Source: an uncultured virus (IMG/VR IMGVR_UViG_3300033996_000365)
Taxonomy: Duplodnaviria > Heunggongvirae > Uroviricota > Caudoviricetes
Direction: 5' to 3' (one strand)
Virus record (IMG/VR): IMGVR_UViG_3300033996_000365
Length of the DNA stretch: 64,000 nucleotides
This document shows, one piece after another, positions 5,504-56,275 of the stretch (position 1 is the stretch's first letter; each line of letters starts with the position of its first letter). The notes beneath the pieces are model-generated. The model ran no database searches and had not been told where the DNA came from. It worked only from the letters and a program-made list of their open reading frames with translations. The translations under genes were made by a program, and so were the position numbers.

Positions 5504-5687
5504 CTGAAAACTCCATTTTCTTTGCGAGGTCAAGGATGTAGCCCTCTGCTAGGGATAAGCCTCGAATCTCCCCGCAAAGTTTTTGATAGTCAGCGAAGTC
5601 TTTGGCCGCGTTGTTAGCCACTGCTTCAACTATCTGATCACGCTTGTCACGTACCTGTTTGATCAGCACCTCAAGCGCTTTATCCAT
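5496..5687 (-). CDS. hypothetical head-module protein
   Basis: 63 aa between portal and GroES, coupled. Confidence 0.65.
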   Translation of the reverse strand: MDKALEVLIKQVRDKRDQIVEAVANNAAKDFADYQKLCGEIRGLSLAEGYILDLAKKMEFSDE

Positions 5688-18896: not shown

Positions 18897-19012
18897 TCTT
18901 CATCTCCCCAAAATAAAGCACAAAATGCAACCAATGCAATCAGCAACATCAAGCCCATGCCGATCAACGCACCGCCAATCAGCGGTATGTGCATAGCAAA
19001 CTCGTAGCTCAT
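18893..19012 (-). CDS. 39 aa membrane peptide
   Basis: MSYEFAMHIPLIGGALIGMGLMLLIALVAFCALFWGDEE; ATGA-coupled at both ends; read manually. Confidence 0.6.
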   Translation of the reverse strand: MSYEFAMHIPLIGGALIGMGLMLLIALVAFCALFWGDEE

Positions 19013-20172
19013 ATCAACAGGTACCTATAGACAGGGTTGGCAAGGCTCCAGTTCTCTGTATCGTTCCGACTCCACTGCGCCGCGTTAACCAGGTTGGCCG
19101 ACGGACAAGAGAAGTTAACCTTGCTTTCGGTCATCGCCACATAGTTCTGGAGGATGGGGATGCAGGACAACTTGCGGTTGGGCAGGTGATGATACCCGCC
19201 CTCGAGTTGGTTTGACCGATCTATTACAGTCGGGTCGCCACTTGCAATCATGTTGCCGATGGTCGGATCATCTGACAACAGGTGCCTGCGCCGCACGAAC
19301 CGGCTCATCCAGTTCAGTTCCCGCCATATCAGGCCAGCAGGCGGCATGATGGTTTCCGTTTGCAGCTTGTCCCCACCACGCATGAAGATCGTGCCGACAT
19401 CTGGCTCGGCAGAATAGCCCGTGTCAACGTACTCGTTGATGGCAAAGTTTATTTCCCGATACCAACCTTCTTTCAGGCAGGCAATCTCGCTTGCCACTTC
19501 CGATGTTGGGTGCAGCATCCGATCCCGCATATCCTGAAACCGCACCATCGGCAGGTCGCCCGTGGTGAACTCAAACACATCGGCAAAGATTTCCTCGAAC
19601 GGCTCGTCATACGACCACCAGTTGCCGGACAAGTCCACCCGTAGTTGATAGCCCTGTAGCTCGGCACAAATGGCCGCAGCGACGATGTTCTCGATGATGG
19701 AGAACAGACCGCTGTTGCGTGGTCGATAGCTGATATGGCCGTGAAATGCTCTGCCACCGGGTGTTATGCATTCACGAGCAAAGCCGGTGTACAGGTAATA
19801 CTCATCCTCATCAACGCCGTACCGCCGGTTAGCACGCTCGAACCCCATGCACCCGACAAGCTCTTGCTTGAAAGTAAAGTTTGCTGGCAAGTTTTCCGGC
19901 AGCATGAAGTCGATCTCGTCCCACTCGAAACAGTTCCAGAACGCCATGCGTGCGGCGATAGCAGCCAGCCTACCCCGTGGACCATACTTCTTGCCCATCT
20001 CCAGCACCTGATCTGTGCCTGCCCACGGCTGCGTAGCAAGGCCGCGCGTCATCGACTGGACTAACGAACTGACATCCATGCCGAAGTCTGTCGGCTCATG
20101 CGGCAGCCGGTATCTGTGGAACTGAATCACTTTGCCCTCCCTGTGCGTGTCTTGCCTTTGGTAACGTGCCAC
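19009..20172 (-). CDS. fucosyltransferase-like glycosyltransferase (GT23/NodZ-like)
   Basis: SGLFSIIENIV, IFMRGGDK (cf. VHxRxxDK motif I), LLSDD (cf. motif II), SANL. Confidence 0.55.
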   Translation of the reverse strand: MARYQRQDTHREGKVIQFHRYRLPHEPTDFGMDVSSLVQSMTRGLATQPWAGTDQVLEMGKKYGPRGRLAAIAARMAFWNCFEWDEIDFMLPENLPANFTFKQELVGCMGFERANRRYGVDEDEYYLYTGFARECITPGGRAFHGHISYRPRNSGLFSIIENIVAAAICAELQGYQLRVDLSGNWWSYDEPFEEIFADVFEFTTGDLPMVRFQDMRDRMLHPTSEVASEIACLKEGWYREINFAINEYVDTGYSAEPDVGTIFMRGGDKLQTETIMPPAGLIWRELNWMSRFVRRRHLLSDDPTIGNMIASGDPTVIDRSNQLEGGYHHLPNRKLSCIPILQNYVAMTESKVNFSCPSANLVNAAQWSRNDTENWSLANPVYRYLLI

Positions 20173-26916: not shown

Positions 26917-27167
26917 CCATCACACTAACCCGCGAGGAAGCACAGCAGTTATTAGAAGTGTTTGAATTGTTTTTAGAGGAAGCTGAAGACGTTACCACCC
27001 TTGAAAACAACTTAGTCAAAATGCTCCGCACCCGAATAGCGCAGCCTGAACGCGAATGGCAGGGACTAACGGATGAGGAAATAGATCAAGTCGCCGCAAG
27101 TTTTGGTTATGGGTACATAGACGTTGCACGAGCCATCGAAGCCAAGCTGAAGGAGAAGAACACATGA
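26913..27167 (+). CDS. mosaic small protein (MTITLTREEAQQ...AIEAKLKEKN)
   Basis: Shares DNA blocks with 24952 and 25164. Confidence 0.7.
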   Translation: MTITLTREEAQQLLEVFELFLEEAEDVTTLENNLVKMLRTRIAQPEREWQGLTDEEIDQVAASFGYGYIDVARAIEAKLKEKNT

Positions 27168-27934
27168 TCGACGGCAAGCCCACCATCATGATTGGCACGC
27201 CCGCTTACGGCGGTGCCATGTTCATGGAATACGTAGACAGTATGCTGCGCAACGTCAGCTTCCTTGAGAGCAAGGGCATCAAGACACGCTGGCAGTTCAT
27301 GAACAAAGAGGCGCTGATCACTCGCGCCCGCAACGAGATCGCTCGGTATTTCTTGGATGAAACCCAAGACGATTACCTGATGTTTGTTGACGCCGATATC
27401 TGGTTCCCGACAGACGGAATCTACAAGCTACTCCAGCACAACAAGGAGATGGTGTGCGGTATCTATCCCAAGAAGTTTATGTTCTGGGATCGCATCCGGC
27501 AGGCAGCGTTGCGGGGAGAGCAGGACATCGACAAGTTCGGCTGCTCGTATGTGTTGAACGCAGTGAACGATCAGGGTGATCCAGACAAAGTACCGCTGGG
27601 ACCAGACGGCCTGGTAGAAGTTATGCACGGCGGCACAGGGTTCATGATGATCCACAGAAGCGTGTTCAAGGCGCTGCGATTCAAGGTGCCTACCTACCGC
27701 ACCAGCCTGATCACCAACCCAGCGAACGGCCAGTTCCTTGCACCGCTCACCCGCGAGTTCTTCGGCACCAGCATCACAGAGCTAGGACTGCTGTTGTCAG
27801 AGGACTATCACTTCTGTGAGCTGTGGAAAAAAGAGAGTGGCAGAATATACGCCGATCCCACTATTGAGTTACGCCACGTAGGACAGCATGTCTTCGCGGG
27901 TGACTTGATGCGGGCTGGAAGAAACAACACTTAG
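27164..27934 (+). CDS. GT-A fold glycosyltransferase, paralog of 30070
   Basis: TPAYGG, LITRARN, MFVDAD, GTGFMMI, LSEDYHFC, HVG. Confidence 0.75.
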   Translation: MIDGKPTIMIGTPAYGGAMFMEYVDSMLRNVSFLESKGIKTRWQFMNKEALITRARNEIARYFLDETQDDYLMFVDADIWFPTDGIYKLLQHNKEMVCGIYPKKFMFWDRIRQAALRGEQDIDKFGCSYVLNAVNDQGDPDKVPLGPDGLVEVMHGGTGFMMIHRSVFKALRFKVPTYRTSLITNPANGQFLAPLTREFFGTSITELGLLLSEDYHFCELWKKESGRIYADPTIELRHVGQHVFAGDLMRAGRNNT

Positions 27935-27942
27935 GAGGAAAC

Positions 27943-28185
27943 ATGTTACGAGATGGACAGTTCATCAAAGAACCACCGCCGAAGATCGGCAGCCACTATG
28001 TGCCGCAGTTCTATCAGACGGTGCAGGAAAGAAGCGGCGCGATAGAAAGCGAGAACAGATGGGAAGCGTTCTACCGCAAGAACATCTCTTCGTTTGACGT
28101 TGGCGCAATCATGATTCTGATGTACGTGGTACTCGCTTTTGTCATCACCGTTCTGCGCGAGTTATTTCACCTGTTGTTTGGATGA
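27943..28185 (+). CDS. small membrane protein
   Basis: AGGAGG SD; C-terminal hydrophobic helix. Confidence 0.6.
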   Translation: MLRDGQFIKEPPPKIGSHYVPQFYQTVQERSGAIESENRWEAFYRKNISSFDVGAIMILMYVVLAFVITVLRELFHLLFG

Positions 28186-28397
28186 GCCGGAGGTTATTTC
28201 AGATGGCAAACGAAGCCGCAGAGGGTGAAGACCTGATCTACGCGCCGGACGCTGCCGCTATGGCGTGGATGCGGAAGTTCTCGAAGATGGTAACGCTGAC
28301 AGAACGAGAACGCTGCGCCGCGCTGGTAGAGAAGCTGGGCATAGAAGGCTACGGCACGCTTGCCATAGCCGCCATCATTAGGAAGGGGGAGGAATGA
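28182..28397 (+). CDS. hypothetical protein
   Basis: ATGA-coupled; ERERCA motif. Confidence 0.6.
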   Translation: MSRRLFQMANEAAEGEDLIYAPDAAAMAWMRKFSKMVTLTERERCAALVEKLGIEGYGTLAIAAIIRKGEE

Positions 28398-29350
28398 AGG
28401 TAGGCATCCATAACCATTATGAGTTCATCACCCGCGACGGATACCTATTCAAGAACGAGAACAGTGACGTAGGCCACAACCTGCTGCGTCCGTGGATGGA
28501 GCTGCACAATATGTGCAAGCTGACCGGTATTGACCTGTACACACTTGACCAGGTGGATCCACGAGAACTGGACTTCGTAATCTACATGGACCGCCCGCGT
28601 GTGGAGCCGGACATCGGCAACGCCCGAAAAGCACTGGTGCTGTACGAGCCGCCAGCCATCCTGCCGGACAACTGGGATCCCGCCTATCATGACCAGTTCA
28701 CCAAAGTGCTGACATGGAACGACGAGCTTGTGGGTAAGGGCGGCTGGGTTTATGAGAAGCACAACTTCACCGTGGACTGGGAAGCCCGGCAACGTTGCCA
28801 CATGACGGAGGAAGAGTTCCGCGCCCGCAAGCTGCTGACCATCATCCAGTCAGCCAAGAACATGCAGTTCCCCGGCAGCCTGTACACCAAGCGGATCGAA
28901 GCCATCCTCTGGTTCCAACAGAACGACATGTTCCAGTTCGACCTGCACGGCTACGGGTGGAATATCAAAAACTTCCACTGCTACAAGGGCAAGACAGAGA
29001 ACAAGCTGAAGACGTACAGCAACTACCGGTTCGCCCTGACATTCGAGAACTGCGACAACGCCGTCGGCTATATCAGCGAGAAGATTCTAGACGCCTTCAT
29101 GGCAGGGATTGTGCCGGTGTACTGGGGTGCGCCCAACGTCACCGACCACATCCCGCCCGAGTGTTTTATTGACATGCGGGAGTTTGGTGGCTGGCAAGAT
29201 TTACACGGCTACCTCACCAACATGGACTACGCCCGCTACGCCGAATACCTCGAGGCCATCGACGGATTCATCCTGTCAGACAAGGCCAATCAATTTAGCA
29301 ACGAGCATGAAGTCAAACAACTGTACCGACTGATAGAGAGGAACAGATGA
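28394..29350 (+). CDS. GT10 (alpha-1,3-fucosyltransferase-like) glycosyltransferase
   Basis: YRFALTFEN...GYISEKILDAFMAGIVPVYWG signature. Confidence 0.85.
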   Translation: MKVGIHNHYEFITRDGYLFKNENSDVGHNLLRPWMELHNMCKLTGIDLYTLDQVDPRELDFVIYMDRPRVEPDIGNARKALVLYEPPAILPDNWDPAYHDQFTKVLTWNDELVGKGGWVYEKHNFTVDWEARQRCHMTEEEFRARKLLTIIQSAKNMQFPGSLYTKRIEAILWFQQNDMFQFDLHGYGWNIKNFHCYKGKTENKLKTYSNYRFALTFENCDNAVGYISEKILDAFMAGIVPVYWGAPNVTDHIPPECFIDMREFGGWQDLHGYLTNMDYARYAEYLEAIDGFILSDKANQFSNEHEVKQLYRLIERNR

Positions 29351-30060
29351 ACATCGCGGTGATTACCAGCACACGAGGCCGCGAGACGATCCGGCAGGCT
29401 ATAGACAGCGTGAAGGCGCAAACCATAAAGGCTAGACACTATGTCTTCGCACACGGTAAAGATTGTTGGGACGCTACGGCGGCAGCTACAGCGGGCAGTA
29501 ACGTTGATGTTGTTTATCTTCCAGTTGCCAACGGGGGTGGGGGTTATGCTATGGCTCCTGTTTACGCTGCTGCTCCTTACTTGGTCGGTGAAGACCTGAT
29601 CTTCTACCTCGACGACGACAACTTCTACGACCCTGACCATATCGAATCCATCGTTAACCTGATGGAGCAGCATGAACTTGGCTGGGCGTACAGCCTGCGC
29701 AAGATCGTGGACAACGACGGCAACCCCGTCTGCGAGGACAACTGCGAATCGCTGGGCTGCCACCGGAACTCACACGGGCATTACTTGGTGGACAACTCAT
29801 GTTACGCCGTGCGTACAGAACACGCCCGTCAGCACAGCCATGCGTGGTACGTACCCATCGTATCTGACCGCTCGTTCCAAGCTGCGCTGATGCAGGCCAA
29901 GATCAAGTGCGGCACTACCGGCAAACACAGTGTCAGCTACCGCCTGTCTAGCGACGGCAGCGGTGGCATGACCAAAGAGAAATTCCTCGGCAACAACGAG
30001 TGGATGGCACAGCATCGTCCAGGCTTTGAATGGACAAAAAAGCAGATCTTTAACTTCTAG
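29347..30060 (+). CDS. GT2 glycosyltransferase
   Basis: AIDSVKAQT, IFYLDDDN DxD motif. Confidence 0.8.
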   Translation: MNIAVITSTRGRETIRQAIDSVKAQTIKARHYVFAHGKDCWDATAAATAGSNVDVVYLPVANGGGGYAMAPVYAAAPYLVGEDLIFYLDDDNFYDPDHIESIVNLMEQHELGWAYSLRKIVDNDGNPVCEDNCESLGCHRNSHGHYLVDNSCYAVRTEHARQHSHAWYVPIVSDRSFQAALMQAKIKCGTTGKHSVSYRLSSDGSGGMTKEKFLGNNEWMAQHRPGFEWTKKQIFNF

Positions 30061-30069
30061 GAGAATGGA

Positions 30070-30834
30070 ATGGCAAAACTTTTCGTAGCGACCCCGATGT
30101 ACGGCGGTCAATGCTTTGGCTACTTTACCCAGTCAATCATGACCTTGCAGAACAACCTGCGTGAGAACCGTGTAGACATGGCGTGCAGCTTTCTGTTCAA
30201 CGAGTCGCTCATCCAACGCGCCCGCAACGCGCTAGTCCATGGCTTCCTGAAGACAGACTTCACGCACATGATGTTCATCGACGCGGACATTCACTTCGAT
30301 CCCAAAGACGTGCTGCCCATGCTGCTAGCAGACAAGCCAATCATCTGCGGCATCTACCCTAAGAAGGAAATCAACTGGGCGAACGTCCATGCAGCCGCGC
30401 TGGCAGGCGTACCACCGCAAGACCTGCGCAAGTACAGCGGTTCGTTCGTGGTCAATCTGGTCAACTACCAGAACGAGCAGCGCGTAGAACTGGACAAGCC
30501 GGTAGAGATTTGGAACGGTGGCACGGGCTTCATGATGATCAAGCGCGAGGTCTTCGAGCAGCTCAAGGAACACGTGCCTACCTATGTCAACGACACCAAC
30601 GATCTTGGCGGCAACATGGGTAATGACCGTATCCATGAGTTCTTTGCTACCAGCATTGAGCCGATGGGCGAGCGCCTGCTATCCGAGGACTACCACTTCT
30701 GCAAGATCTGGCGCGACCATTGTGGCGGCACAGTCTGGGCAGCACCGTGGGTACAGCTTGCACACATCGGCACCCACAAGTTCGACGGCATCCTGACAGA
30801 GAAGCCACAGGCTCCTAAACCACAAGAGGTGTAA
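30070..30834 (+). CDS. GT-A fold glycosyltransferase, paralog of 27164
   Basis: TPMYGG, ESLIQRARN, MFIDAD, LSEDYHFC, HIG. Confidence 0.75.
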   Translation: MAKLFVATPMYGGQCFGYFTQSIMTLQNNLRENRVDMACSFLFNESLIQRARNALVHGFLKTDFTHMMFIDADIHFDPKDVLPMLLADKPIICGIYPKKEINWANVHAAALAGVPPQDLRKYSGSFVVNLVNYQNEQRVELDKPVEIWNGGTGFMMIKREVFEQLKEHVPTYVNDTNDLGGNMGNDRIHEFFATSIEPMGERLLSEDYHFCKIWRDHCGGTVWAAPWVQLAHIGTHKFDGILTEKPQAPKPQEV

Positions 30835-32067
30835 ATGTTTACAGCCGGACAGACTTATATCCCTGCCTCCGGGCAGGTGGTAGGCGACCGCGAGAAGGAG
30901 CTGATGCACGAAGCTGTCGACCGTGGCTGGTTGACGGCAGGCGCATTTAACCGGCAACTGGAAGAAGGGCTGACCAAGTTCTTAGGCTGCAAGGCCGTCA
31001 GGACTACCAGCTCTGGCAGCTCTGCCAACCTGCTGGCCTTCTCTGCCCTGACCAGCCCGTCGCTAGGCAAGCGGGCAATCCAGAGGGGCGATGAGGTTAT
31101 CAGCGTTGCCTGCGGCTTTCCCACCACCATCGCGCCGATCATCCAGTTCGGTGCGGTGCCGGTGTTCTTGGATGTCAACAGCACCCTGAACATCGACACC
31201 CGTACGCTGGAGCAAGCCATCACCAGCAAGACCAAAGCCATCATGATCGCGCACACGCTGGGCAATCCGTTCAACGTGGATGCCATCATGGAGGTGGCAG
31301 ACAGGTATGGTCTGTGGGTTATCGAGGACTGCTGCGATGCGCTGGGTTCCCGCTGGCGCAACCAGAACGTCGGCACGTTTGGTGATCTTGCCACCCTGTC
31401 TTTCTTCCCGGCGCACCACATCACCACGGGCGAAGGCGGGGCGGTCATCATCAACAACACCAAGCTGTCTCGGCTGGTGGAGTCCTTCCGCGACTGGGGC
31501 AGGGACTGCTGGTGCGAGCCAGGTAAGAACAACACCTGCAAGCGCCGGTTCGATCAACAGTTTGGCGAACTGCCCTACGGCTACGATCACAAGTACGTCT
31601 ACACCCATCTGGGCTACAACCTGCGGATCACCGAGATGCAGGCTGCCTGCGGCGTGGCACAGCTTGAGAAGCTGCACCAGTTCATCTCTACCCGCAAGAG
31701 CAACTACGGGTACTTGCGCCAGCGTCTGGATGCCTATGATCATTTCTGGTTTCCAACCGTCTACGCAGATGCGTCGCCTAGCTGGTTCGGCTTTCCCATC
31801 ACGGTATCGCCGACTGCCAAGTTCTCGCGAGATGCGCTGACCCAGTTCCTTGAGAGCCGTCAGATCGGATGCCGCCTGCTGTTTGCTGGCAACGCGACCA
31901 AGCAGCCGTTCTTGCAGGGACAGAACTACCGCGTCCACGGCACGCTGGAGAACACGGACTACGTGATGAACAACACGTTCTGGCTGGGCGTACAGCCTGC
32001 GCTGACAGAGGAGATGCTGGCCTATGTCTGCGACACCATCGACGAGTTTATAAAGGAAAACGGATGA
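30835..32067 (+). CDS. rfbH: CDP-4-keto-6-deoxy-D-glucose 3-dehydrase (E1/DdhC)
   Basis: DegT-family fold with SFFPAHHITTGEGG (His in place of the Schiff-base Lys), EDCCD, RDCWC...TC, YDHKY. Confidence 0.9.
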   Translation: MFTAGQTYIPASGQVVGDREKELMHEAVDRGWLTAGAFNRQLEEGLTKFLGCKAVRTTSSGSSANLLAFSALTSPSLGKRAIQRGDEVISVACGFPTTIAPIIQFGAVPVFLDVNSTLNIDTRTLEQAITSKTKAIMIAHTLGNPFNVDAIMEVADRYGLWVIEDCCDALGSRWRNQNVGTFGDLATLSFFPAHHITTGEGGAVIINNTKLSRLVESFRDWGRDCWCEPGKNNTCKRRFDQQFGELPYGYDHKYVYTHLGYNLRITEMQAACGVAQLEKLHQFISTRKSNYGYLRQRLDAYDHFWFPTVYADASPSWFGFPITVSPTAKFSRDALTQFLESRQIGCRLLFAGNATKQPFLQGQNYRVHGTLENTDYVMNNTFWLGVQPALTEEMLAYVCDTIDEFIKENG

Positions 32068-33845
32068 AGGCTTCTGACTACATCTGCTCGAGGATCAAGG
32101 AGCTAACAGGGACGGACACCGTATTCCTGCTGTCCGGCGGAGGCATGATGCACCTGCTGGACAGCGTGGGCAAAACGGATGGCCTGAAGTACATGCACTT
32201 GCACCACGAGCAGTCCTGTGGATTCGCAGCCTACGCTTACGGCAGGACGGTCAACTCGACGGGCGTCCTGTTTGTAACCTCTGGCCCCGGCGGTACGAAT
32301 GCCATCACCGCCGTGGCGTCAGCGTTTGCAGACAGCGTACCCATGCTGATCATCTCCGGCAACATCACCCAGACCTTCTCGGCACACGGGCTGAACCTGC
32401 GGATGAGGGGCTTTCAAGAACTGGATATCGTCGAGGTGGTCAAGCCCATCACCAAGTACGCCAAGTTCATCAGCTCCCCGCAGGACGTCAGGCGAGAACT
32501 GGAGAAGGCCGTCTTCATTGCTAACGACGGACGCCCCGGACCTGTCTGGCTGGACATCCCGCTGGACGTACAGTGCGCTGACATCAGCCATGATTTGCAG
32601 GAAGGCTTCACCGGCTTTAGTTCCAACGCCGCGCCGACACCGGAGCTGGTGCAGTCCATCATGCACAAGCTGCACACAGCCGCTCGTCCGCTGATCCTCT
32701 TTGGTAACGGCACCTACACCAGCGGTGGCAAGGATGCCGCTAGACAGTTAGCCAAGACGTTCAACGTCCCGGTGCAGACAACCTGGGGTGCAGTAGACCT
32801 GATCCCAGACAGCTATCCCAACTACTTCGGGCGATCCAATTCGTTCGGACCACGCTACCCCAACATCATCATCCAGAACGCCGACTACATCCTGTCTATC
32901 GGTGCTCGACTGGGTGTACAGCACACCAGCCACAACATCGAAACCTTTGCCCGGCAGGCATTCGTTGACATGATTGACCTTGACCCAGCAGAAGCAAACA
33001 AGCCGGGGCTGAATGTCGGCAGGCACTCACGAGTCTGCGCCAAGAAGCTGATAGACGAGCTGCTGAAGCAAGGGCTGGTACGAGCCAACAAGGATTGGCT
33101 GGACTATTGCCAGAAGGTCAAGGACAGGTTCCCTGTTGCGCCTACCATGCAGGCGGTGAGAGACGATCACTACGTGGATCCGTACTACTTCTACTCCGAG
33201 CTTGGCAACCAGTTGCCGGATGACGCTGTGCTGACACCGACAGGATCAGGACAGGCATTCATCATCGGCCATCAGGTGCTGAAGATAAAAGAGTCCACCC
33301 GGATGTTCGGTGCCAAGAACCTAGCCATGATGGGATCCTGCCTGCCGTCAGCTATCGGGGCGCACATGGCAACAGGCAAGCAGATCATCTGCGTGACAGG
33401 CGACGGCGGCATACAGCTCAACTTGCAAGAGCTTGCCATCATCAAGCACCACAACCTGCCTATCAAGATATTCGTGTTCAACAACGCTGGGTATCACGCC
33501 ATCAGGATCACGCAGGAGAAGTACTTCGACAGTAGATACGTTGGATCTACCGAGCATACCGGCGTCCACATCCCGTCGTTCTCCAACGTTGCCAACTGCT
33601 ACGGCCTGCGGTATCGCAAGCTACACAGCAACGTGCAGATTAAAACCCTGATCGCCAACGTGCTGACCACGAACGAGCCAGAGATCATCGAGGTCATCCT
33701 TGACCCGCATAAGCCGACGGAACCAACCATCGGTTCGTACATGCGCTCGGACGGCACGATGTCATCACGGCCATTGGAGGATATGGTGCCGCTGGTGGAC
33801 AGGGAAGAGTTGCGCAGCCTGATGTTTATCGACTTAATGGACTAG
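32064..33845 (+). CDS. ThDP-dependent carboligase, acetolactate-synthase fold (YerE-like)
   Basis: HHEQ, TSGPGGTN, GRPGPVWLDIP, GDGG...NN; ATG at 32064 overlaps rfbH stop. Confidence 0.85.
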   Translation: MKASDYICSRIKELTGTDTVFLLSGGGMMHLLDSVGKTDGLKYMHLHHEQSCGFAAYAYGRTVNSTGVLFVTSGPGGTNAITAVASAFADSVPMLIISGNITQTFSAHGLNLRMRGFQELDIVEVVKPITKYAKFISSPQDVRRELEKAVFIANDGRPGPVWLDIPLDVQCADISHDLQEGFTGFSSNAAPTPELVQSIMHKLHTAARPLILFGNGTYTSGGKDAARQLAKTFNVPVQTTWGAVDLIPDSYPNYFGRSNSFGPRYPNIIIQNADYILSIGARLGVQHTSHNIETFARQAFVDMIDLDPAEANKPGLNVGRHSRVCAKKLIDELLKQGLVRANKDWLDYCQKVKDRFPVAPTMQAVRDDHYVDPYYFYSELGNQLPDDAVLTPTGSGQAFIIGHQVLKIKESTRMFGAKNLAMMGSCLPSAIGAHMATGKQIICVTGDGGIQLNLQELAIIKHHNLPIKIFVFNNAGYHAIRITQEKYFDSRYVGSTEHTGVHIPSFSNVANCYGLRYRKLHSNVQIKTLIANVLTTNEPEIIEVILDPHKPTEPTIGSYMRSDGTMSSRPLEDMVPLVDREELRSLMFIDLMD

Positions 33846-33853
33846 GAGGCGAC

Positions 33854-34765
33854 GTGAAGATCATCATCATGGGGGCAAGTAGCCACCTTGCCCGTGACCT
33901 AATTACGTCCTTCAGCGACGAGCATTTCCTAGAACTATTTTCCCGCGACGCCGGTGTCATGAGCCGGTGGATGGTTGAGCACAACCTGAAGAACTTTTTC
34001 TCCCGGACGTACTCCAACTTCGCGTCCATGGCTAAGAACGCAGACGTCATCATCAACTTCGTCGGTGCTGGCAACCCAGAGCGCATCAGGAATATGGGCA
34101 GCAATATCTTCCAGATCACGGAGACGTTCGACAAGATGGCACTGGACTATCTGGTCGAGAACCGTGACTGCAAGTACATCTTTATCAGCAGCGGTGCTGT
34201 GTTCGGCGACAACTTCAACACGCCTGCCGACGCACACAAGTGTGCTACCTACCCTGTCAACAACATCCAGCCGCATCACTATTACGGGTTGGCAAAGCTG
34301 GCCGCAGAGACGCGCCACCGCGTGACACCGGGCTGCATCATGGATCTGCGGATGTACAACTACTTCAGCCACACCGCTGACCTGAACAGTCGGTTCATGA
34401 TCAACGACATGATCCGGGCAGTAAAGGAAGGCATCGTGTTCCGCGCAGACAGAACGCCAATCGTACGGGATTACGTCGGCTCACTAGACTTCTTCCAGAT
34501 GATCAACGTCCTGCTAGGCCAGAATATCAATACCGCTATCGACTGCTACAGCCGCCAGCCCGTGACAAAAGAAATGCTGCTCGACTGTATGAGCAAACGG
34601 TACGGTATGAAGTATGAGATTGTTAATACCCCAGCAGGTCTTCCTGCAACGGGCATCAAACAGAACTATTATTCTACGAACACAGACGCGTATGCGCTGG
34701 GATATAGACCGACGCTGAGTTCTTTGGAGACGATCTATCTTGCAGCAGACAAACTCCTCAAGTGA
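33854..34765 (+). CDS. NAD-dependent epimerase/reductase (extended SDR, possibly YerF-like)
   Basis: IIIMGASSHLA Rossmann start, FISSGAVFG, YGLAK. Confidence 0.8.
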   Translation: MKIIIMGASSHLARDLITSFSDEHFLELFSRDAGVMSRWMVEHNLKNFFSRTYSNFASMAKNADVIINFVGAGNPERIRNMGSNIFQITETFDKMALDYLVENRDCKYIFISSGAVFGDNFNTPADAHKCATYPVNNIQPHHYYGLAKLAAETRHRVTPGCIMDLRMYNYFSHTADLNSRFMINDMIRAVKEGIVFRADRTPIVRDYVGSLDFFQMINVLLGQNINTAIDCYSRQPVTKEMLLDCMSKRYGMKYEIVNTPAGLPATGIKQNYYSTNTDAYALGYRPTLSSLETIYLAADKLLK

Positions 34766-34901: not shown

Positions 34902-35085
34902 CAAACCTACCCAAGTAATCGACACCCGTAAGTATCAAGACGTTTCTCGTACCTTCGACTTTGTGCAGCGCCAGCGGATTTGCCGCGAGTGCAACCAGCG
35001 GTTTCAGTCAATTGAAATACCGCAGGAAGTATGGGAGCGGCACTATGACCCGAACCTAGAGGCAGAGCAGATTGAAAACGATTAA
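34882..35085 (+). CDS. NrdR-like zinc ribbon protein without ATP cone
   Basis: MWCPTC...TQVIDTR...RQRICREC..RFQSIE parallels the NrdR N-terminus. Confidence 0.7.
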   Translation: MWCPTCDKPTQVIDTRKYQDVSRTFDFVQRQRICRECNQRFQSIEIPQEVWERHYDPNLEAEQIEND

Positions 35086-35356
35086 GGAGTACATGAACGA
35101 AGTAGCCAACATTGGCTGCGTTCTCTGCCATCACCTTGGCTACGGTCATACCCCTGCTCACCTGCACCACCCGCGTGATGCGGTGGGCGGGGCGCAGCGG
35201 GCTTCTGACTGGCTTGTGATTCCGCTTTGCCCAGAACACCATCAGGGGCAGTCTGGCTACCACGGGTTAGGAAGCAGAGGCTTTTATACACGGTACAAGC
35301 TTACCGAGTGGGATCTGATGGCGATGACTATCGAGCGCCTGCAAACTGCTTCTTGA
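35072..35356 (+). CDS. Ref/DUF968-like HNH nuclease
   Basis: GCVLC...HH...VIPLCPEHH. Confidence 0.75.
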   Translation: MKTIKEYMNEVANIGCVLCHHLGYGHTPAHLHHPRDAVGGAQRASDWLVIPLCPEHHQGQSGYHGLGSRGFYTRYKLTEWDLMAMTIERLQTAS

Positions 35357-38300
35357 CCTCTAGCCGCGCCTCTTCCATCTGGCGGGCAATCTCGCCGATG
35401 ATGACCTTCATACGGTCGATCTCTTCTTTCTTCTGAGCGCCTGACATATTCTCGTCGTTGCGGATAGCCAGGATAGCCTTGCGCATTTCTGCCATGTCCT
35501 TCGCCGCGTTGTCGTAGAACTTCGCCATGGCAATCTTGTCACCCTTGTCCTTCAGGATATCTTGCACCTTGTCTGCCTCGCCTAGCTGCGCAAAGTGGCG
35601 CATGTCGGCATAGGCTTGGGCGATCTCTTTGTTGTTCTCGTAGAACGCAGTGACATACCTGGACTGCGTGGCGGGCAGGCTCTTGATGAACCCAGCAGAC
35701 AGCGTCTCCGTCCAGTTGTTGTCAGGGTATGCAGACTTGGAGAACGGCTGCACAGCATAGTGAGATGCCCACGAAGCAGTACCACCCAACCAACCCAGAT
35801 AACCTTTGATGGCGTAGTCTGCCTGCACGGGCGATATCTCCGTGCTCTCTGGCAGGAAAACGTTGGTAACTTTGGATAGCGCGATAGCAAGCGGGCTAGT
35901 CTTCTCGGCAATACGCTCGGCTTTCGACAGACGTTCCATGCCAGCAGTTTCAATCGGTGCACCCGTGAAGCTGTCCTTGTTAGCGTACAAGTCCACCAGT
36001 GGCTTGATCACCTGCGGGATTGGATTGATGGCGAACGTGTCTGTGAGCATACGCTTCAAGCTCTGCTCGAACACTTTGCCTTCTGCGCCCTTGTCAACGA
36101 TCTGCTCTGCCACGCGCTCGACCATCGTGCCAAATGCACCAATCTCAAATGGCTTTGGTATGCGCAAGGCGTTGTCCATACCCGGCAGCTTGAACCACCA
36201 GAAGTTATCTCGATCCCACTGCTCACGTTTCTGGAACTCTTCGTCGTCCTTGAACGCCATGTATAGCATCAAAGACGCTAGTGCCACGGCAGACATAACG
36301 ATGCTGAACTGTTCAGCCTTTTGTTTGTCCGTCGCCTCAATAGGTTTGCCGGTAGCCTTGTTGTAGATCACCCGGCTGGTCGGCACAATACCGTCGCGGC
36401 CAAGCTTGTACAAACCCTGCACGCGCGCATTTAAGAACGGGATGGTTTGTGTTAGCAGGCGGAAGGCAGGCCACGAACCCTGCATGGAAAAATCCAGCAA
36501 GTCACGGGCATAAAACGATGCCTCTAGGTGCGTAAAATTTTGTTCCGTCTTTGGATTAACCGTATTCCGAAGCTGCTGATACAACGCCATGCGGTTGGCC
36601 GCTTCTGACTTGTTGCCCAAGTCCTGATATGCGCGCCATGCAGCACGCAGCCCAGACTCAATCTTCTTCTCATTATCAAGGATTGTGTCACCCTTTACGC
36701 CCTGGTTTAGCAGGCGGCGGATCAGTTTGGCCTGATCGCCTTCGTACGCAGAACCAAAGTTGAAAATGGCACCGCCTGCTAGCGCAGAGATATGCGCCGG
36801 GTTGTTGCGGTCGGATGCAGCCCAGCCCTGTGCCACGTTGGCAAACGGATTGCGCTTTAAGTCTGACACCGCGATAGCCGAGATGGAATCACGGAACAGG
36901 TTACGAATCTTGAACGCTGGGGATAGAGTGACACCGAATTGCAACATGTTCTTGAAGTCACGGGCGATGTCGAGGAACTTGGACTTCGGACCCATGTATC
37001 CGATAGACATGATGGACTCAAGCAAGAGCGGCTCGATTACCTCGAAGTACGCAGGCTTGCCGCCGATCATGGTCTTGATCAACCCCTTGCCATCGCTGCT
37101 GGTGTACTCTGGCTTCAAGCTGCCATCACCTACCATCGCGCCAGTTTTGTCGCTGTAAACCTTGCCATCTTCCCAGCGCAGACCTACCTTTAGGTTAGGG
37201 AACGCACCGTTTAATTTTATCGCCGCACGAATGGTAGCGTTAGCAGCTTCGTTCTTCATAGACGCAGACAGGATGTGGCTCCAGTTGCGCAGCGTGTTCT
37301 CCATCAAGTCGCCGAACGGTTTCTCGCCACCCTTCAGCGCCTTTGAGAAGTACTGGTTCACCAGCCCTGACTTAGTAGCCGCAGCCTGCACGTCACCGCC
37401 CTCTTCCATCACCTTGTAGAACGGGATGTAGTTGATGTCACGACGGAAAGTTTTATAGGCTTCCTTGTCAATAATTCCCTGGCGCAAAGCAATTGTCAGC
37501 ACAGAACCGTTCAACTTTTTCATGTCGCGTTGAACTTTTTTGTATACCTCAAGTCTAGATTGGTTGCCTATTTTCCCATCCGATAGCTCATCTCTTCGAG
37601 CAACAATCTCTTTGTTAACAGATGGGGCTTTGCCTTTGGCAACCAATTCTGCATCGCGGTTTAGGGCAGCCCAAATTTGATACCTATCAACTTCATTTCC
37701 AACCGGCTCCAAAACCTTCAGCAGACCCTTGCTGTTTGGTTTAATATCCAGCGCGCCGTTATTCAGCTTGACCTCACCATCAAACAGAATGCCTTCCAGC
37801 GCTCCGTCGATGGTCTTCGCCATCCGGGCTTTCATGTAGGCTTCTTCGCTGTAGTCCTTGATCGTGCGGTACTGATCAGCAATACCCTGCGCCAGCCGCT
37901 GCCAGAAGCGGTCACGCATACCGTCTATCTTCTGAACAATATTCTTATTCTGCGGGAAGAAGGTAGGACTAATCTTATTCCACAGATCGTCAGGCACACC
38001 CTCAAAGCTAGACGGCTTCTCTTTCGGAGCGCCCGTCCGCATCTTGTCCCACTTCTCTTCCAACTTGTCCTGCATCCGTTTGGGTTCTTCCGAGGCGTCG
38101 GCAGGCGCATCTTCAAATGGTTCTTGTTTTTTGTCCTCTATTCCAACAACTTCATCTTTGGCGAAGCTAGCCTGCTGACTTGGCCTAGATACCAACTCAT
38201 CAGTCAATGCGATAATTTCTGTAAGGGCGTTGTTATTTTTGAACCCAAGCAGTTCAGCCACGTACTTGGTAAACGCACTCCATGCGGTTTGCTTTTGATA

Positions 38301-51707: not shown

Positions 51708-52073
51708 TTACGCCTCCGATGCTTTCCACGAAGTCGTGGCTTCATCCCATGAATACATCTGGCCGTCGGTAGGCATATCCACAGGTGCTTTCCACTGGCA
51801 GGTTTCTTCGTTCAACACCCAGCTTGCAAACGGCTTGGGCGGGATGAACGCATCACGCTGCTCGTCAAATATGTAACCCTGACCGGCGTAGTTCTTGCGC
51901 TTGTTCCCGTTGTAGCTGGTCTGTACCCAGCGGCCACCCAGCAGGCGCTCGCAGAAAGCAGCACCGATATGTTCTTTCTCAATGCCGCTTGCATCAGAGG
52001 TGTCGCGGTTGTCAACGACGATGACGCGCAGAACCTCGTTGTTTGGGCCAAGTTCACAGAAGTGAGCCATCAT
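51708..52073 (-). CDS. tail-fibre-associated protein
   Basis: MAHF.EL, WVQTSYN, NYAG.GY, DAFIPPKP. Confidence 0.65.
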   Translation of the reverse strand: MMAHFCELGPNNEVLRVIVVDNRDTSDASGIEKEHIGAAFCERLLGGRWVQTSYNGNKRKNYAGQGYIFDEQRDAFIPPKPFASWVLNEETCQWKAPVDMPTDGQMYSWDEATTSWKASEA

Positions 52074-52678
52074 TCTTCTCCTAATTGCAGTCCAGTTAAG
52101 CTCTCATCGACACCGATGTGTCCCTTGAGAAAGGTATTAAATGCGATGCTGACACGGGTTTCGTCGCCCACCTTCGTTTGCACCATGTGCTCGAGATGAG
52201 ATGGGAACAGAATCAAATCACCTGCGCCAACTTCATACCACCAGCTTTCAGAGTTCCAGTGGTTCCATGTGTCTGGCTGTAGCTTGATACGCTCGTAGCC
52301 GCTTTTGTAAAAGTAAATCTTGTCTACCAGCCTGTCAGCCTGCGGGTAAAACACACCGCTGATAAAGCTGTTCGGATGCGCGTGCTTGTGATGCCACTGC
52401 CCAGGCTCTGTGTAGTTCGACCACGACTGCGTGATGTACAGGGATACGTCACCTTTAGGATCGTGCACCGTCTTAAAGTATTCCAGAACCGCGTCTTCGA
52501 TGAAGTCACGAATGTCTGTCAACTCTTTACCAACCAGTATCTTGCGGTCGGCGCTGGTGGTGTTGCCTTCGTTGGCATAGCGCTCTTGACCGAGGATAAA
52601 GTCCAGCTCTGTCTTGGTCAGATCACGACCGAGTCGGGCGAACCCAACAGGCAGGGGAAAAAGGTTCTGGATATTCAT
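52070..52678 (-). CDS. putative 2OG-Fe(II) oxygenase (TIGR02466-like)
   Basis: HKHAHPNSFISGVFY, LFPSHLEH, RVSIAFN. Confidence 0.85.
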   Translation of the reverse strand: MNIQNLFPLPVGFARLGRDLTKTELDFILGQERYANEGNTTSADRKILVGKELTDIRDFIEDAVLEYFKTVHDPKGDVSLYITQSWSNYTEPGQWHHKHAHPNSFISGVFYPQADRLVDKIYFYKSGYERIKLQPDTWNHWNSESWWYEVGAGDLILFPSHLEHMVQTKVGDETRVSIAFNTFLKGHIGVDESLTGLQLGEE

Positions 52679-52940: not shown

Positions 52941-54554
52941 TTATGAGTTTAGTTTAAGGATGACTACGCCAGATCCGCCACTTCCGCCTGTTGACGCTCC
53001 GACATTTTCACGTTGACCACCACCGCCACCATTTCCTGTGTTTGTTAATCCGTTTGCGCCATTGATTGCGGGGGATGCATAAAGCCCACCGCCAGCGCCA
53101 GCAGCATAAGTGACAGAACTCCCGCTAATTGATGAAGAGCTTCCATTGCCGCCAATGCCGGGAGCGTTACTAAATCCACCGCCTCCAGCCCCGCCTGCGC
53201 CGCCGCCACCGCCAGCGCCATAGAAAGGCCCATTAGGATTACCGCTGCCCCCGTTATTACCTTGACTTGGATTTGTGGACGGTGTGTTGCCAGCAGCACC
53301 AGCACCACCGAATCCAGCTCCGCCACCGCCAGATCCGCCAGTGCTGCCTGCATTAGTTTGTCCTGCCGCTGATGATCCACCTCTACCGCCACCATTTGAT
53401 GTAATGGTTGAAAAAGAAGAGTTGGAACCGTTTGATCCGTTGGCCTGAGAAACACCAGCACCACCGGCTCCAACAGTTACAGTATATGAAGTTCCAGAAG
53501 TAACGGAAAATGCCGTTCCAGTTCTAAACCCACCAGCGCCGCCTCCGCCGCCAACTTCTCCACCGCCAGCACCACCACCCGCTACTACTAGGTAGTCCAC
53601 ACTGACCACGCCCGGCGGACAAGTCCACGAGCCTGTATTGGTAAACGTCAGCACGCCTGTCTGTGGGGCTAGGTATCTAATAATGACAATGCCGCTGCCG
53701 CCGGTGCCGCCTTGCCCGTTGCCACCGGCACCACCGCCGCCACCTCCACCCGTGTTTACTGTTCCATTAGAACCTGTTGCAGCATTCGTGTAGCCCCCGT
53801 TAGCGCCGCCTCCAGATCCACCAATACCATTTAGAATGGTATTAGGTTGAAAGCCACCGCCACCACCGCCACCACCATAAGTGGTTGAGCTGCCCGTGAT
53901 AGAAGAAATTTGACCGTTGCCGCCGTTTCCAGACTGTCCGGTTACACCATTTGCTCCAACCGCACCAGCACCTCCACCACCACCTGTGGGGAAATTACTA
54001 GAACCAACAAATATTCCAGTTCCGCCGTTGTTGCCTTGCGATGGCGTTACTGCTGGAGTGTTGCCATTTCCACCAAGCCTAGTTCCAGAAGGAAAAGCAC
54101 CACCACCACCACCGCCGGAACCGCCATCAGTGCCAACAGTACCAAGATTTCCACCACGACCCCCGCCGTTTGAAGTGATGGACGAGAATATGGAATTTGC
54201 GCCAGAGGTTGCAGAAACTCCGCCTGCACCAACGGTAATTGAATATGTTGTTCCCGGAATTACTGCAAGCCCAGTACCCGTTCTAAATCCGCCTGCTCCA
54301 CCACCACCAGCAAAGTCAACACCACCACCGCCGCCACCTGCCACTACCAGATAATCTACCTGCGACACGCCGTCAGGGCATGTCCACGAGCCGGAAGCCG
54401 TGAATGACAGCACCACCGTGTTGGTAGGTATGCCCGGCCACACGCCTGCTTTTATAGCCTGTAATGCCTGCTGTAGCGTCCAGATGCCAGATGCCTGCGT
54501 CGTGCTCGGTATGACCGGCGCACGCGTCATTATTCTGCCGGGATAATCACTCAT
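52941..54554 (-). CDS. Gly-rich tail fibre/receptor-binding protein with two repeated domains
   Basis: Two copies of VDYLVVAGGG...GGSG(I/V)VI. Confidence 0.75.
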   Translation of the reverse strand: MSDYPGRIMTRAPVIPSTTQASGIWTLQQALQAIKAGVWPGIPTNTVVLSFTASGSWTCPDGVSQVDYLVVAGGGGGGVDFAGGGGAGGFRTGTGLAVIPGTTYSITVGAGGVSATSGANSIFSSITSNGGGRGGNLGTVGTDGGSGGGGGGAFPSGTRLGGNGNTPAVTPSQGNNGGTGIFVGSSNFPTGGGGGAGAVGANGVTGQSGNGGNGQISSITGSSTTYGGGGGGGGFQPNTILNGIGGSGGGANGGYTNAATGSNGTVNTGGGGGGGAGGNGQGGTGGSGIVIIRYLAPQTGVLTFTNTGSWTCPPGVVSVDYLVVAGGGAGGGEVGGGGGAGGFRTGTAFSVTSGTSYTVTVGAGGAGVSQANGSNGSNSSFSTITSNGGGRGGSSAAGQTNAGSTGGSGGGGAGFGGAGAAGNTPSTNPSQGNNGGSGNPNGPFYGAGGGGGAGGAGGGGFSNAPGIGGNGSSSSISGSSVTYAAGAGGGLYASPAINGANGLTNTGNGGGGGQRENVGASTGGSGGSGVVILKLNS

Positions 54555-54562
54555 GTCTTACC

Positions 54563-56275
54563 TTATTGATTGCACTTGATGATGACAATACCAGAGCCGC
54601 CGTTACCTGCGGTAAAGCTGCCATAGCCTAGAGCGCCGCCACCACCACCACCACCGAGATTGTCAGTGCCATTCGTAGCATTTTGCCCAGTTCCACCGCC
54701 TGACGTTCCTCTCGCTCCGGTTCCGCCGCCGCCAGAACCTCCAATTCCAATTATTTTCTTTGGAGATTGAGATGTATCTGTATCCACTCCGCCACCGCCA
54801 CCACCAGCGTATGTGACGGACGAACCAGAAATAGAGGATGCTGTTCCTGCTCCACCGTTCCCACCGCCTGAACTTGTTGCCGCAGCACCAGCAGCAGAAG
54901 CACCGCCACCACCACCGCCATTTGTAAAACTAATGTTGTCAGTGTTTCCTACGCCGCCATTATTTCCTTGAGATGGAGATGTAACCGGAGTATTTCCTGC
55001 GCCGCCAGCTCCAGTTGCAGCACCGCCACCACCACCAGAACCACCGGCTCGACCAGTATTATTTGTAGTTGCTCCGCCACCACCGCCGCCGTTAGAGGTT
55101 ATGGTGCTAAATACGGAATTTGCGCCATTCGATCCTTGACTGGTATCAGCCGCTGCGCGAGCGCCACCAGCGCCAACTGTTACGGTGTAGGTAGTGCCAG
55201 CGGTTATAGCAAGCGCAGATCCTGTTCTATAACCACCTGCTCCACCACCGCCATAGTTGCCACCACCACCACCGCCACCAGCCACAACCAGATAGTCCAC
55301 GCTCGTCACGCCGACAGGAGCAGTCCACTGGGCAGTAGAGTTGAACACAAAGATAGACTGATTAGGTGCTGTGTAGCGTAGGATGACAATACCAGAGCCG
55401 CCAGCGCCTCCAGTAATCCCAGTAGCATCTGAGGCATTTCTTGCTCCACCGCCACCACCTCCAGTGTTAGCTGTTCCATTAACAGCATCGTTGCTAGTTC
55501 CGGTTCCTCCTGCTCCACCACCGCCAGAGCCGCCAGCGCCACCGGGCGCTGATGACGCGCAGCCTCCGCCGCCGCCAGCATAAGTTACGCTACTTCCAGT
55601 TATGGAAGACGCAGTACCATTCCCACCTGCTGCTACTCCGGGTGATGAACCAGTTCCCCCAACAGCAGAAGCACCACCCCCACCACCACCAAACCCACTG
55701 TTTAAAGCCCCTCCTGTGCCACCGTTATTTCCTTGAGACGGAGAAGTAGATGGAGTGTTTCCTACTCCTCCAGCGCCAGAAGCACTGCCGGGAGAAAAAA
55801 CATTACCGCCACCACCGCCGGAGCCTCCATTTGAACCAACAGTTCCATTGTTTGGGCCTCCGGGCCAATAGCCGCCGCCACCGCCACCATTAGACGTAAT
55901 AGTGGAGAAAATTGAATTGCCGCCGTTCGACCCTTGATTTCCGGTTGTGGCGCTTAAAGCACCCGCACCACCAGCGCCTACAGTAATTTGATATGTTGCG
56001 CCCGGAGTTACGGGTAACGCAGAGCCGGTTCTAAACCCACCAGCTCCTCCACCGCCACCACCACGCTGTCCGCCGCCGCCACCACCCGCCACCACCAGAT
56101 AATCTACAGCCGTCACACCCGCAGGAACAGTAAAGAAGCCAGATGCAGTAAATGTCTGGACAACAGTTACCCCTCTAGGCCAACTACCTAGATTCCAAAT
56201 GCCGGACGCAAAGCCGGGCGTGTACAGCGGCGAAGTCGCGCTGATAATGTTGCCGGGATACCCGTGAATCGCCAT
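54563..56275 (-). CDS. Gly-rich tail fibre/receptor-binding protein with two repeated domains
   Basis: Paralog of 52941-54554. Confidence 0.75.
   Translation of the reverse strand: MAIHGYPGNIISATSPLYTPGFASGIWNLGSWPRGVTVVQTFTASGFFTVPAGVTAVDYLVVAGGGGGGQRGGGGGGAGGFRTGSALPVTPGATYQITVGAGGAGALSATTGNQGSNGGNSIFSTITSNGGGGGGYWPGGPNNGTVGSNGGSGGGGGNVFSPGSASGAGGVGNTPSTSPSQGNNGGTGGALNSGFGGGGGGASAVGGTGSSPGVAAGGNGTASSITGSSVTYAGGGGGCASSAPGGAGGSGGGGAGGTGTSNDAVNGTANTGGGGGGARNASDATGITGGAGGSGIVILRYTAPNQSIFVFNSTAQWTAPVGVTSVDYLVVAGGGGGGGNYGGGGAGGYRTGSALAITAGTTYTVTVGAGGARAAADTSQGSNGANSVFSTITSNGGGGGGATTNNTGRAGGSGGGGGAATGAGGAGNTPVTSPSQGNNGGVGNTDNISFTNGGGGGGASAAGAAATSSGGGNGGAGTASSISGSSVTYAGGGGGGVDTDTSQSPKKIIGIGGSGGGGTGARGTSGGGTGQNATNGTDNLGGGGGGGALGYGSFTAGNGGSGIVIIKCNQ

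Follow-up and report, generated by a model that had tools for sequence, protein, structure and literature searches.

We analyzed an island of sugar genes in an uncultured tailed phage, IMG/VR record IMGVR_UViG_3300033996_000365, using a window that covers 64,000 of its 64,789 bases; the record has direct terminal repeats of 127 bases and is a complete phage genome. An earlier note on this DNA had described a packed run of genes for GT10, GT2 and GT-A glycosyltransferases (GTs), an RfbH protein, a thiamine diphosphate (ThDP) enzyme and a short-chain dehydrogenase/reductase (SDR), and all of these open reading frames (ORFs) lie on the plus strand at the coordinates below. The paralogous GT-A gene that it had placed at 27164 is present as well: the two GT-A proteins are 39-41% identical and both match PHROG 1574. 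Its count of four glycosyltransferases holds for the island itself, and a gene elsewhere in the window brings the transferase-like genes to five in total. The genes concerned are the following.

27164..27934, plus strand: GT-A fold glycosyltransferase, paralogue 1 (PHROG 1574), which some islands lack.
27943..28185, plus strand: 80-residue protein with one C-terminal hydrophobic segment, a core gene of the phage family.
28394..29350, plus strand: GT10 fucosyltransferase-like protein (PF00852, 59 bits against a cut-off of 23.9).
29347..30060, plus strand: soluble GT2 enzyme (PF00535) of a mostly viral cluster.
30070..30834, plus strand: GT-A fold glycosyltransferase, paralogue 2 (PHROG 1574), of a very common phage family.
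30835..32067, plus strand: RfbH/E1-type nucleoside diphosphate (NDP)-4-keto-6-deoxyhexose 3-dehydratase, with pyridoxamine phosphate and [2Fe-2S] (NCBIfam and solved-structure match).
32064..33845, plus strand: ThDP-dependent decarboxylase-family carboligase, JanthE/YerE-like (PF02776, PF00205, PF02775), in a swappable slot.
33854..34765, plus strand: extended SDR (PF01370), predicted branch reductase, which travels with the ThDP module.
19009..20130, minus strand: fifth transferase, with a FUT8/NodZ/POFUT-like GT-B fold in its predicted structure.

The gene island is a real feature of this lake phage and not the result of chance or assembly noise. Intergenic gaps across 28394-34765 are at most 9 bp and two junctions overlap, one DNA contig spans the junction at 27162-28407, and the island gene order is found again in other contigs. 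Lake and freshwater metagenomes are the source of the runs that hold the stretch (at least 24, of which six are possibly the record's own source), and contigs from all four further DNA runs cover most of it. Short contig pieces from RNA libraries overlap the GT-A, rfbH, ThDP and SDR genes, though transcription is not demonstrable from them. For all seven island genes the nonsynonymous divergence (dN) is far below the synonymous (dS) in each of the three relatives tested (for example 0.083 versus 0.68 for the ThDP gene and 0.39 versus 1.65 for the SDR gene), indicating purifying selection. GT-A paralogue 1 is missing in several relatives that retain the remainder of the island, and the 80-residue protein probably stands outside the pathway because it is also present where the island is absent. 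A longer ORF call that would start the ThDP gene at 31869 was rejected, as it overlaps rfbH and the homologues have 593 residues.

RfbH had been read as an E1-type 3-dehydratase and not a DegT aminotransferase, and the equivalog cut-off, the ranking of solved structures and the active-site motifs all agree on this. The protein passes the NCBIfam RfbH equivalog NF011936 with 639 bits (cut-off 423), and among solved structures it scores 527 bits to the E1 dehydrase and 199 bits to ColD. Its His194 aligns with His220 of E1 (position 220 of the 3BCX chain) and is invariant in 29 sequences; C225, C227, C235 and H252, invariant in 29 aligned homologues, align to E1 positions 251, 253, 261 and 278 and are what we take to be the [2Fe-2S] ligands. 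At about 410 residues the phage protein is without the first 26 or so residues of the 437-residue bacterial E1 form, and roughly 90 of its best 120 homologues are also about 410 residues long, forming a large environmental group without that N-terminus. According to the accessible part of PMC8987622, histidine in place of the aminotransferase lysine marks the 3-dehydratases, and [2Fe-2S] is bound by E1 and SpnQ and not by ColD; the same text describes SpnQ as acting on a dTDP-sugar with ferredoxin or flavodoxin in place of E3.

The ThDP enzyme has the ThDP motif (GDG at 446), the catalytic Glu at position 49 and the three-domain fold of the decarboxylase superfamily (PF02776, PF00205 and PF02775). 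When compared with solved structures, a set without YpYerE, it scores 370 bits to 8RPH, 250 to 5AHK (presumably PpYerE) and at most 200 to acetohydroxyacid synthases (AHAS), and profile searches give the same ranking (542, 370 and 296). The 8RPH alignment shows the CDG motif that the available text of PMC12188165 reports for JanthE, and we therefore take 8RPH to be JanthE. The protein stays below the cut-off of all 25 NCBIfam models listed, including the AHAS model TIGR00118 (328 versus 538 bits), and no match to the pieces of IlvN and IlvM searched as AHAS small subunits was better than E 0.18 in the phage genome. A FastTree phylogeny of 58 N-terminal regions of ThDP enzymes, which includes four AHAS but not YpYerE, ErwE or MygE, places the phage clade (support 1.0) among enzymes of bacterial glycan loci, on a branch 0.92 substitutions per site from the four AHAS. 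The proposal that this is a YerE-like enzyme, for which a tree against YerE and AHAS had been named as the check, is supported: it groups away from the four AHAS, and JanthE is its best solved match.

Some 21 clusters of ThDP homologues fall at 78-99% identity; the next are Burkholderiales proteins at about 55%, with a gap in between. PHROG 11199, to which no function is assigned, matches the ThDP protein, so such phage ThDP genes have been catalogued but not explained. No close homologue occurs in cultured phages, where 56 records match (the best 40 at less than 29% identity, mostly host AHAS or related genes), or among the best 25 plasmid matches. In 80 metagenome loci of the family the neighbours include RfbH-like proteins in 25, RfbF-like in 26 and RfbG-like in 22; at least one of the three stands beside the ThDP gene in 27 of the 38 non-phage metagenome loci of at least 10 kb, and representatives pass the curated cut-offs.

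The earlier note had also paired the SDR with the ThDP enzyme, and the two do travel together, both in phage relatives and into Cyanobium. The SDR has YxxxK at 144-148 and a degenerate glycine motif, the PDB sequence search gave no match below E 0.07, and its best 120 homologues carry only generic names. From the company it keeps we predict that it is the branch reductase.

The position of the ThDP gene is occupied by different enzymes in different relatives (L-numbers below label the homologous loci compared). A scan based on RfbH kept 80 of 88 viral loci, namely 26 related ones, which share the window's transferase set or its LPD38 context, 52 unrelated ones and two without an ORF call; several of the 26 are the same contigs as in our other gene-order searches. 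A ThDP module directly follows rfbH in 24 of the 26: a single-chain enzyme in six, a distant, split two-gene decarboxylase type, only 30-41% identical, in 14 (one of them fragmented), and a split transketolase in four. As for the other two, one contig ends after rfbH and the other has a GT10 gene there. An SDR gene comes after the module in most of the 24 (not seen in L114 and L119). When L111 is aligned with the window the two are 95% identical over 27151-32057, show no match over the ThDP gene, where L111 holds a split transketolase, and match again from 33855. An apparent ThDP frameshift in L008 proved to be the genuine two-gene type. Among unrelated phages, rfbH is followed by E1alpha and E1beta genes in L122 and preceded by a split transketolase in L127. 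According to the accessible text of PMC12247030, acceptance of ketones is known in only three ThDP superfamilies, and these match the classes found in the related loci and in L122. The strongest argument for C-C branching is that unrelated enzymes replace one another at a single position, flanked by a 3-dehydratase gene on one side and a reductase gene on the other.

We therefore consider an acyl-branched sugar to be a well-supported product of the island, and a C4-branched 3,6-dideoxyhexose to be likely, since the slot enzymes belong by sequence to superfamilies that are known or proposed to branch keto-sugars. The description of the pathway as yersiniose-like stands for the E1-type RfbH, the YerE-like ThDP enzyme and the SDR; it does not extend to yersiniose itself, ddhA, ddhB and ddhD not being in the locus. 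JanthE, the closest solved enzyme, accepts several donors; yersiniose is not established and is one candidate, a rather doubtful one. An HpcH aldolase gene is found in 17 of the 80 ThDP-family loci and not in this phage (gene-family negatives for the whole phage refer here and below to Pfam and PHROG scans of its 71 ORFs). An aldolase neighbour of the ErwE type is, in the portion of PMC9306805 available, a sign of a longer branch; with no aldolase in the phage, pyruvate would be the simplest acyl donor.

The early steps would depend on the host. The note had argued for host supply of the precursor from the lack of DdhA, DdhB and E3 in the window, and five complete genomes agree with this: RfbF, RfbG and Fer2 (2Fe-2S ferredoxin) have no match in them, the sole RfbG-model matches being below cut-off and in the two that carry gmd. 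Hosts with rfbFG often have their own rfbH, so a dTDP- or GDP-keto sugar may be the one used. Neither CDP as the nucleotide nor the use of E3 is established, and use of host ferredoxin or flavodoxin in the manner of SpnQ is as plausible. For GDP-fucose, gmd and fcl lie directly behind GT10 in three of five relatives compared and in L103. We considered L111:5686-6354, labelled ferredoxin by PHROG 3704, as a stand-in for E3 and set it aside, as it has no Pfam match and three scattered cysteines.

When loci were collected with the neighbouring gene at 35072-35356, 45 were found. The rfbH, ThDP and SDR genes are present in 17, only the 3' part of the island in four, and a smaller set of methyltransferase, GT-A and DUF5672 genes in three; 11 have no recognised sugar gene between the core genes and 10 are uninformative. 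The island is thus missing in 11 of 35 informative relatives and is optional, and its presence in PolA-carrying phages (L115-L117 and L125) indicates that it moves between families. The ThDP and SDR genes also occur as a pair, without rfbH, in a low-GC patch of a Cyanobium metagenome-assembled genome (MAG; L006:10001-12704), in which the ThDP gene is frameshifted and no close rfbH or rfbG was found; intact copies of the phage-clade ThDP gene are recorded in several other Cyanobacteriota MAGs. These cyanobacterial copies nest inside the phage clade (support 0.993), which suggests transfer from phage to cell, and a search of 251 genomes from that family found the Cyanobium-type copy in only one. 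Sugar clusters of larger size, which include an RfbF-like nucleotidyltransferase, an aldolase, a NeuB-like gene or several GTs, occur in the viral contigs L120, L124, L135, L137, L139, L145 and L151.

None of the five transferases has a membrane segment; the GT-A and GT2 families are mostly viral, and the GT-As of the island are not basic. PDB sequence searches were blank for the GT-A at 30070-30834 and for the 373-residue protein, and both were compared as predicted models. For the GT-A model the best Foldseek match is A197 of Sulfolobus turreted icosahedral virus (STIV; E 7.9e-10), and a second aligner (VIA) agrees (Z 18.8, rmsd 2.3, 164 aligned residues), followed by LH3/ColGalT, mimivirus R699 and Mnn9 (Z 15.7-16.4), then TarP (12.6) and GtrB (11.0). 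We estimate that this GT-A family occurs in about 2,300 viral stretches. At 10 of 80 GT-A loci the region just upstream of it holds a radical SAM gene together with genes for E1alpha-like proteins, E1beta-like proteins or both; these are small RecT/YqaJ-type phages (L031:7170-10735 and nine similar) with rfbH not in view. The family also stands beside the sliding clamp in T4-like alphaproteobacterial phages (NC_027204, MT028491), where the acceptor may differ. A homologue labelled 'dpG-synthase-like protein' (MW202753) was followed as a lead to DNA bases and dropped, as no relevant literature was found; we read the label as the generic GT2 name dolichol-phosphate-glucose synthase.

The fifth transferase (19009-20130) has no Pfam or PHROG match. 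Its model (pLDDT 86) is matched by Foldseek to FUT8 (E 3.2e-6) and then to FUT1, NodZ and POFUT, at a low TM score of 0.44, and the motifs RGGDK, LSDD and CPSANLVNAA are present, with R251, G252 and D254 invariant as in an RxxD-type GDP-sugar motif. We predict from the model that it is a FUT8/NodZ/POFUT-type GT-B transferase. In five other loci (L114-L117 and L125) its homologues are part of the island or adjoin it.

These data suggest a mechanism in which the host would provide an NDP-4-keto-6-deoxy sugar, with CDP as the nucleotide by descent, or dTDP (RmlAB) or GDP (Gmd) by availability. RfbH, whose family is clear, would strip the C3 hydroxyl with electrons probably drawn from host ferredoxin or flavodoxin, and the ThDP enzyme, again of assigned family, would join the acyl unit of a 2-oxo acid, most simply pyruvate, to the C4 ketone. 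The SDR, judging by its co-travel, would reduce the branch, after which the soluble transferases may act in the cytoplasm and assemble a glycan on capsid or fibre proteins, at Ser/Thr or at hydroxylated residues. Exchange of the ThDP module would alter the branch and hence the surface chemistry of the virion.

We favour the reading that the island makes a C4-branched 3,6-dideoxy sugar and, together with fucose, builds a glycan on the phage's own virion proteins, with a probability of roughly 0.45. The evidence leans to a virion protein as the acceptor, with no single line decisive. Both aligners place the GT-A fold nearest to protein-glycan transferases, and an RfbH-type gene lies between portal and head genes in 19 of the 52 unrelated phage loci (13 of 30 clusters at 70% identity), a portal or head gene being in view at 33 of the 52 and a ThDP module within 7 kb at 34. 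These portal-head loci (L132, L133, L138, L142, L144, L146, L148, L149, L153, L155, L156, L166-L168 and L173-L177) hold RfbH-type, epimerase, methyltransferase, radical SAM and split ThDP genes, some with a GT4 or GT34 gene after the capsid gene, and are likely to be capsid-glycosylation modules in their own right.

Several observations weigh against this reading. The portal-head modules are only analogous, with RfbH 36-57% identical and different transferases, and the island is the last part of the early/recombination transcript, whose strand is not that of the structural genes. A capsid protein of STIV is glycosylated, but the acceptor of A197 itself is unproven as far as the accessible text of PMC10551542 goes. 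The grouping of the split ThDP type with the YerE-like clade is loose (support 0.795, FastTree), and the closest bacterial locus among those compared, L265, has a galactarate-dehydratase-like gene and not rfbH before the ThDP gene; with the aldolase neighbours described above, this indicates that the donor may be longer than pyruvate. The enzyme activities, the sugar and the glycoprotein of this mechanism are predictions from sequences and models. The early-strand position would also suit addition of the same sugar to the host surface, to an O-antigen or other glycan, where it would block superinfection or change receptors. That is the usual reading of such cyanophage genes in the part of PMC12801897 available; the bacterial relatives lie in surface-glycan loci (L271 has gmd, fcl, rfbF/G/H, ThDP, SDR, GT10 and GT2 genes), and Cyanobium has acquired the ThDP and SDR pair. 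We nevertheless hold this to be rather unlikely, as there is no flippase, polymerase, Gtr set or integrase among the ORFs scanned, the five transferases have no membrane segments and two of their families are mostly viral, and a lytic cycle would leave little time to remodel lipopolysaccharide.

Placement of the sugar on the phage DNA, where it would hypermodify bases or the backbone and so counter restriction or CRISPR, is in our judgement unlikely. It would account for an island among replication and recombination genes and for GT-A homologues that in the T4-like phages phiM12 and vB_OspM_OC stand next to the sliding-clamp gene, within the replisome block, and the R..DxD..EDY motif is common to the island GT-As and DNA-modifying GT-As, which also share epimerase partners (Pyle et al., bioRxiv 2023.12.21.572611); the FUT8-like gene, too, lies near ParB-like and DNA-methyltransferase genes. 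No usable publication on base modification in phiM12 was found. The phage has no Tet_JBP match at E up to 10, a model that divergent phage dioxygenases can escape, and no thymidylate-synthase-like or other base-priming family among its ORFs, and GTs without priming neighbours were judged less likely to act on DNA by Pyle et al. (bioRxiv 2023.12.21.572611). Neither GT-A is basic, and their fold is nearer to protein-glycan enzymes. Among 256 four-mers GGCC shows the strongest depletion (0.50 of expected), which resembles a genome exposed to restriction and is a weak indication. If RfbH and the SDR instead made an unbranched 3,6-dideoxyhexose of the abequose or paratose type, the ThDP genes would serve separately, for example in acetolactate or carbon-flux supply. 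The SDR is extended like 4-ketoreductases and not matched to YerF, automatic labels name the ThDP protein acetolactate synthase, and transketolases are often read as metabolic; three different ThDP modules exactly between rfbH and SDR, the missed AHAS cut-offs with no small subunit found (IlvN and IlvM pieces), and an SDR that moved with the ThDP gene and not with rfbH make this improbable. That a branched NDP-sugar or small glycoside is itself the end product, never transferred to a macromolecule and serving as a decoy or as an inhibitor of glycan synthesis or defence in the host, would fit an accessory and variable island whose acceptor is not identified, but three to five transferases kept together under purifying selection fit an assembled oligosaccharide, and we regard this possibility as very remote.

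The rest of the genome, annotated with Pfam and PHROG, provides the setting. The minus strand encodes the terminase, portal, capsid (2106-3014), adaptor, DNA-ejection, LPD38 and lysis proteins, and the plus strand has a block for recombination with exonuclease, ERF and helix-turn-helix genes. The terminase shares 52-58% identity with HTVC023P/027P-type records and 48% with MinM2/Pag-Yong1, and an Rz-like spanin gene points to a Gram-negative host. No tRNA genes were found in the window, and a promoter scan of it was at chance level (6 versus 8.8). Further features of the genome are the following.

5102-5533, minus strand: GroES-like co-chaperonin (PHROG 3188), between portal and head genes.
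17515-18896, minus strand: ParB-like gene and a short gene resembling cytosine methyltransferases (PHROG 757), both situated between the helicase and the FUT8-like gene.
35328-40781, minus strand: LPD38 polyvalent protein, probably ejected.
52070..52678, minus strand: 2-oxoglutarate (2OG)-Fe(II) oxygenase (PF13759), adjoining two Gly-rich fibre genes.
52941..56275, minus strand: pair of Gly-rich fibre-like proteins in which Ser and Thr together make up about 21% of residues; candidate glycan acceptors.

The short methyltransferase-like gene is missing from several close relatives, and the LPD38 protein is highly variable or replaced in close relatives, L001 having no match. Speculatively, the oxygenase could produce hydroxylated acceptor residues; a PF13759 homologue (L106:11191-11745) is inserted inside the island of another phage, between rfbH and split ThDP genes.

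The chemistry proposed here is already known from bacteria, and virus-coded glycans are also known; the exchange of ThDP enzymes is the most surprising feature. Acyl-branched sugars form a family that includes YerE/yersiniose, ErwE/erwiniose, MMAR_2332/caryophyllose, MygE, JanthE and PpYerE (PMC9306805, PMC12247030 and PMC12188165, each in its accessible part). Like the yersiniose A pathway of Yersinia pseudotuberculosis (E1/E3, YerE and YerF), the island brings together, in a single run, an E1-type 3-dehydratase, a ThDP enzyme of the decarboxylase superfamily and an NAD(P)-dependent SDR; unlike that pathway it is viral, has a short RfbH and no RfbF, RfbG, E3, flippase or polymerase, and in its close relatives the ThDP gene gives way to split decarboxylase-type genes or to a split transketolase. 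The split transketolases and alphaKADH2 E1alpha/beta enzymes of miharamycin, amipurimycin and paulomycin-type branching are of the classes found beside rfbH in L099, L103, L111 and L112 or in L122 and L127. The text of PMC12247030 available counts 13 putative split transketolases, all in Streptomycetes and none characterised, with ketone branching proposed; unlike these, the phage ones replace a YerE-like gene in one syntenic slot.

Glycans of virions and of phage DNA provide the other comparisons. Giant-virus fibril glycans are a further case of virion glycosylation, and Gtr serotype-conversion cassettes comprise a flippase, a polyprenyl-phosphate GT and a multi-pass membrane transferase, carried by temperate phages. 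None of these Gtr features is found among the ORFs scanned, and the island's transferases are without membrane segments. In Che8-like mycobacteriophages the capsids are glycosylated and the GT genes lie away from the structural block (Freeman et al. 2023, as cited in the accessible parts of PMC11256854 and PMC12619734). The island shares with Che8 and with STIV A197/B345 a virus-coded soluble GT-A, in its case of a fold closest to A197 (PMC10551542); in contrast, the portions of the literature examined report no branched dideoxy sugar or sugar-branching enzyme for Che8, STIV or giant viruses. With DNA glycosylation clusters composed of C5-MT (cytosine C5-methyltransferase), 5mYOX and GT genes (bioRxiv 2023.12.21.572611; PMC13229309) it has in common the GT-A motif, sugar-modifying partners and ParB-like and methyltransferase genes, whereas no 5mYOX/TET or ThyS-like priming enzyme was found. 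Cyanophage sugar islands (S-H68; S-SCSM2R, accessible part of PMC12801897) likewise carry enzymes for NDP-sugars, besides GT10/GT11 and a gene similar to the 3-dehydratase (33% identical), but the 17-kb stretch of S-H68 examined has no ThDP branching enzyme. RfbH has been named as a viral auxiliary metabolic gene (AMG) without a pathway or product (PMC10653327, PMC11295528). We found no description of a phage branched-sugar pathway in the literature searched, which leaves out most subscription papers, and none of the YerE/yersiniose papers, judged by title and the start of the abstract, concerns phages.

Few tailed phages are known to carry glycans on their virions. Viral genes labelled 'acetolactate synthase' or 'transketolase' in AMG surveys may be sugar-branching genes and not genes of central metabolism. 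The slot gives matched sets of soluble enzymes for asking whether transketolases add to ketones, which the accessible text of PMC12247030 calls unproven, and if our reading is true it would be the first natural evidence of split transketolases branching keto-sugars outside the antibiotics of Streptomycetes. We suggest, tentatively, that phages widely make C-branched dideoxy sugars for their virion coats and diversify them through three ThDP classes (YerE-like, split transketolase and E1alpha/beta) in one slot. This would be a phage counterpart of O-antigen variation: a recurrent, swappable rare-sugar pathway would show heavy investment by phages in surface chemistry, and it predicts specific masses in viral concentrates.

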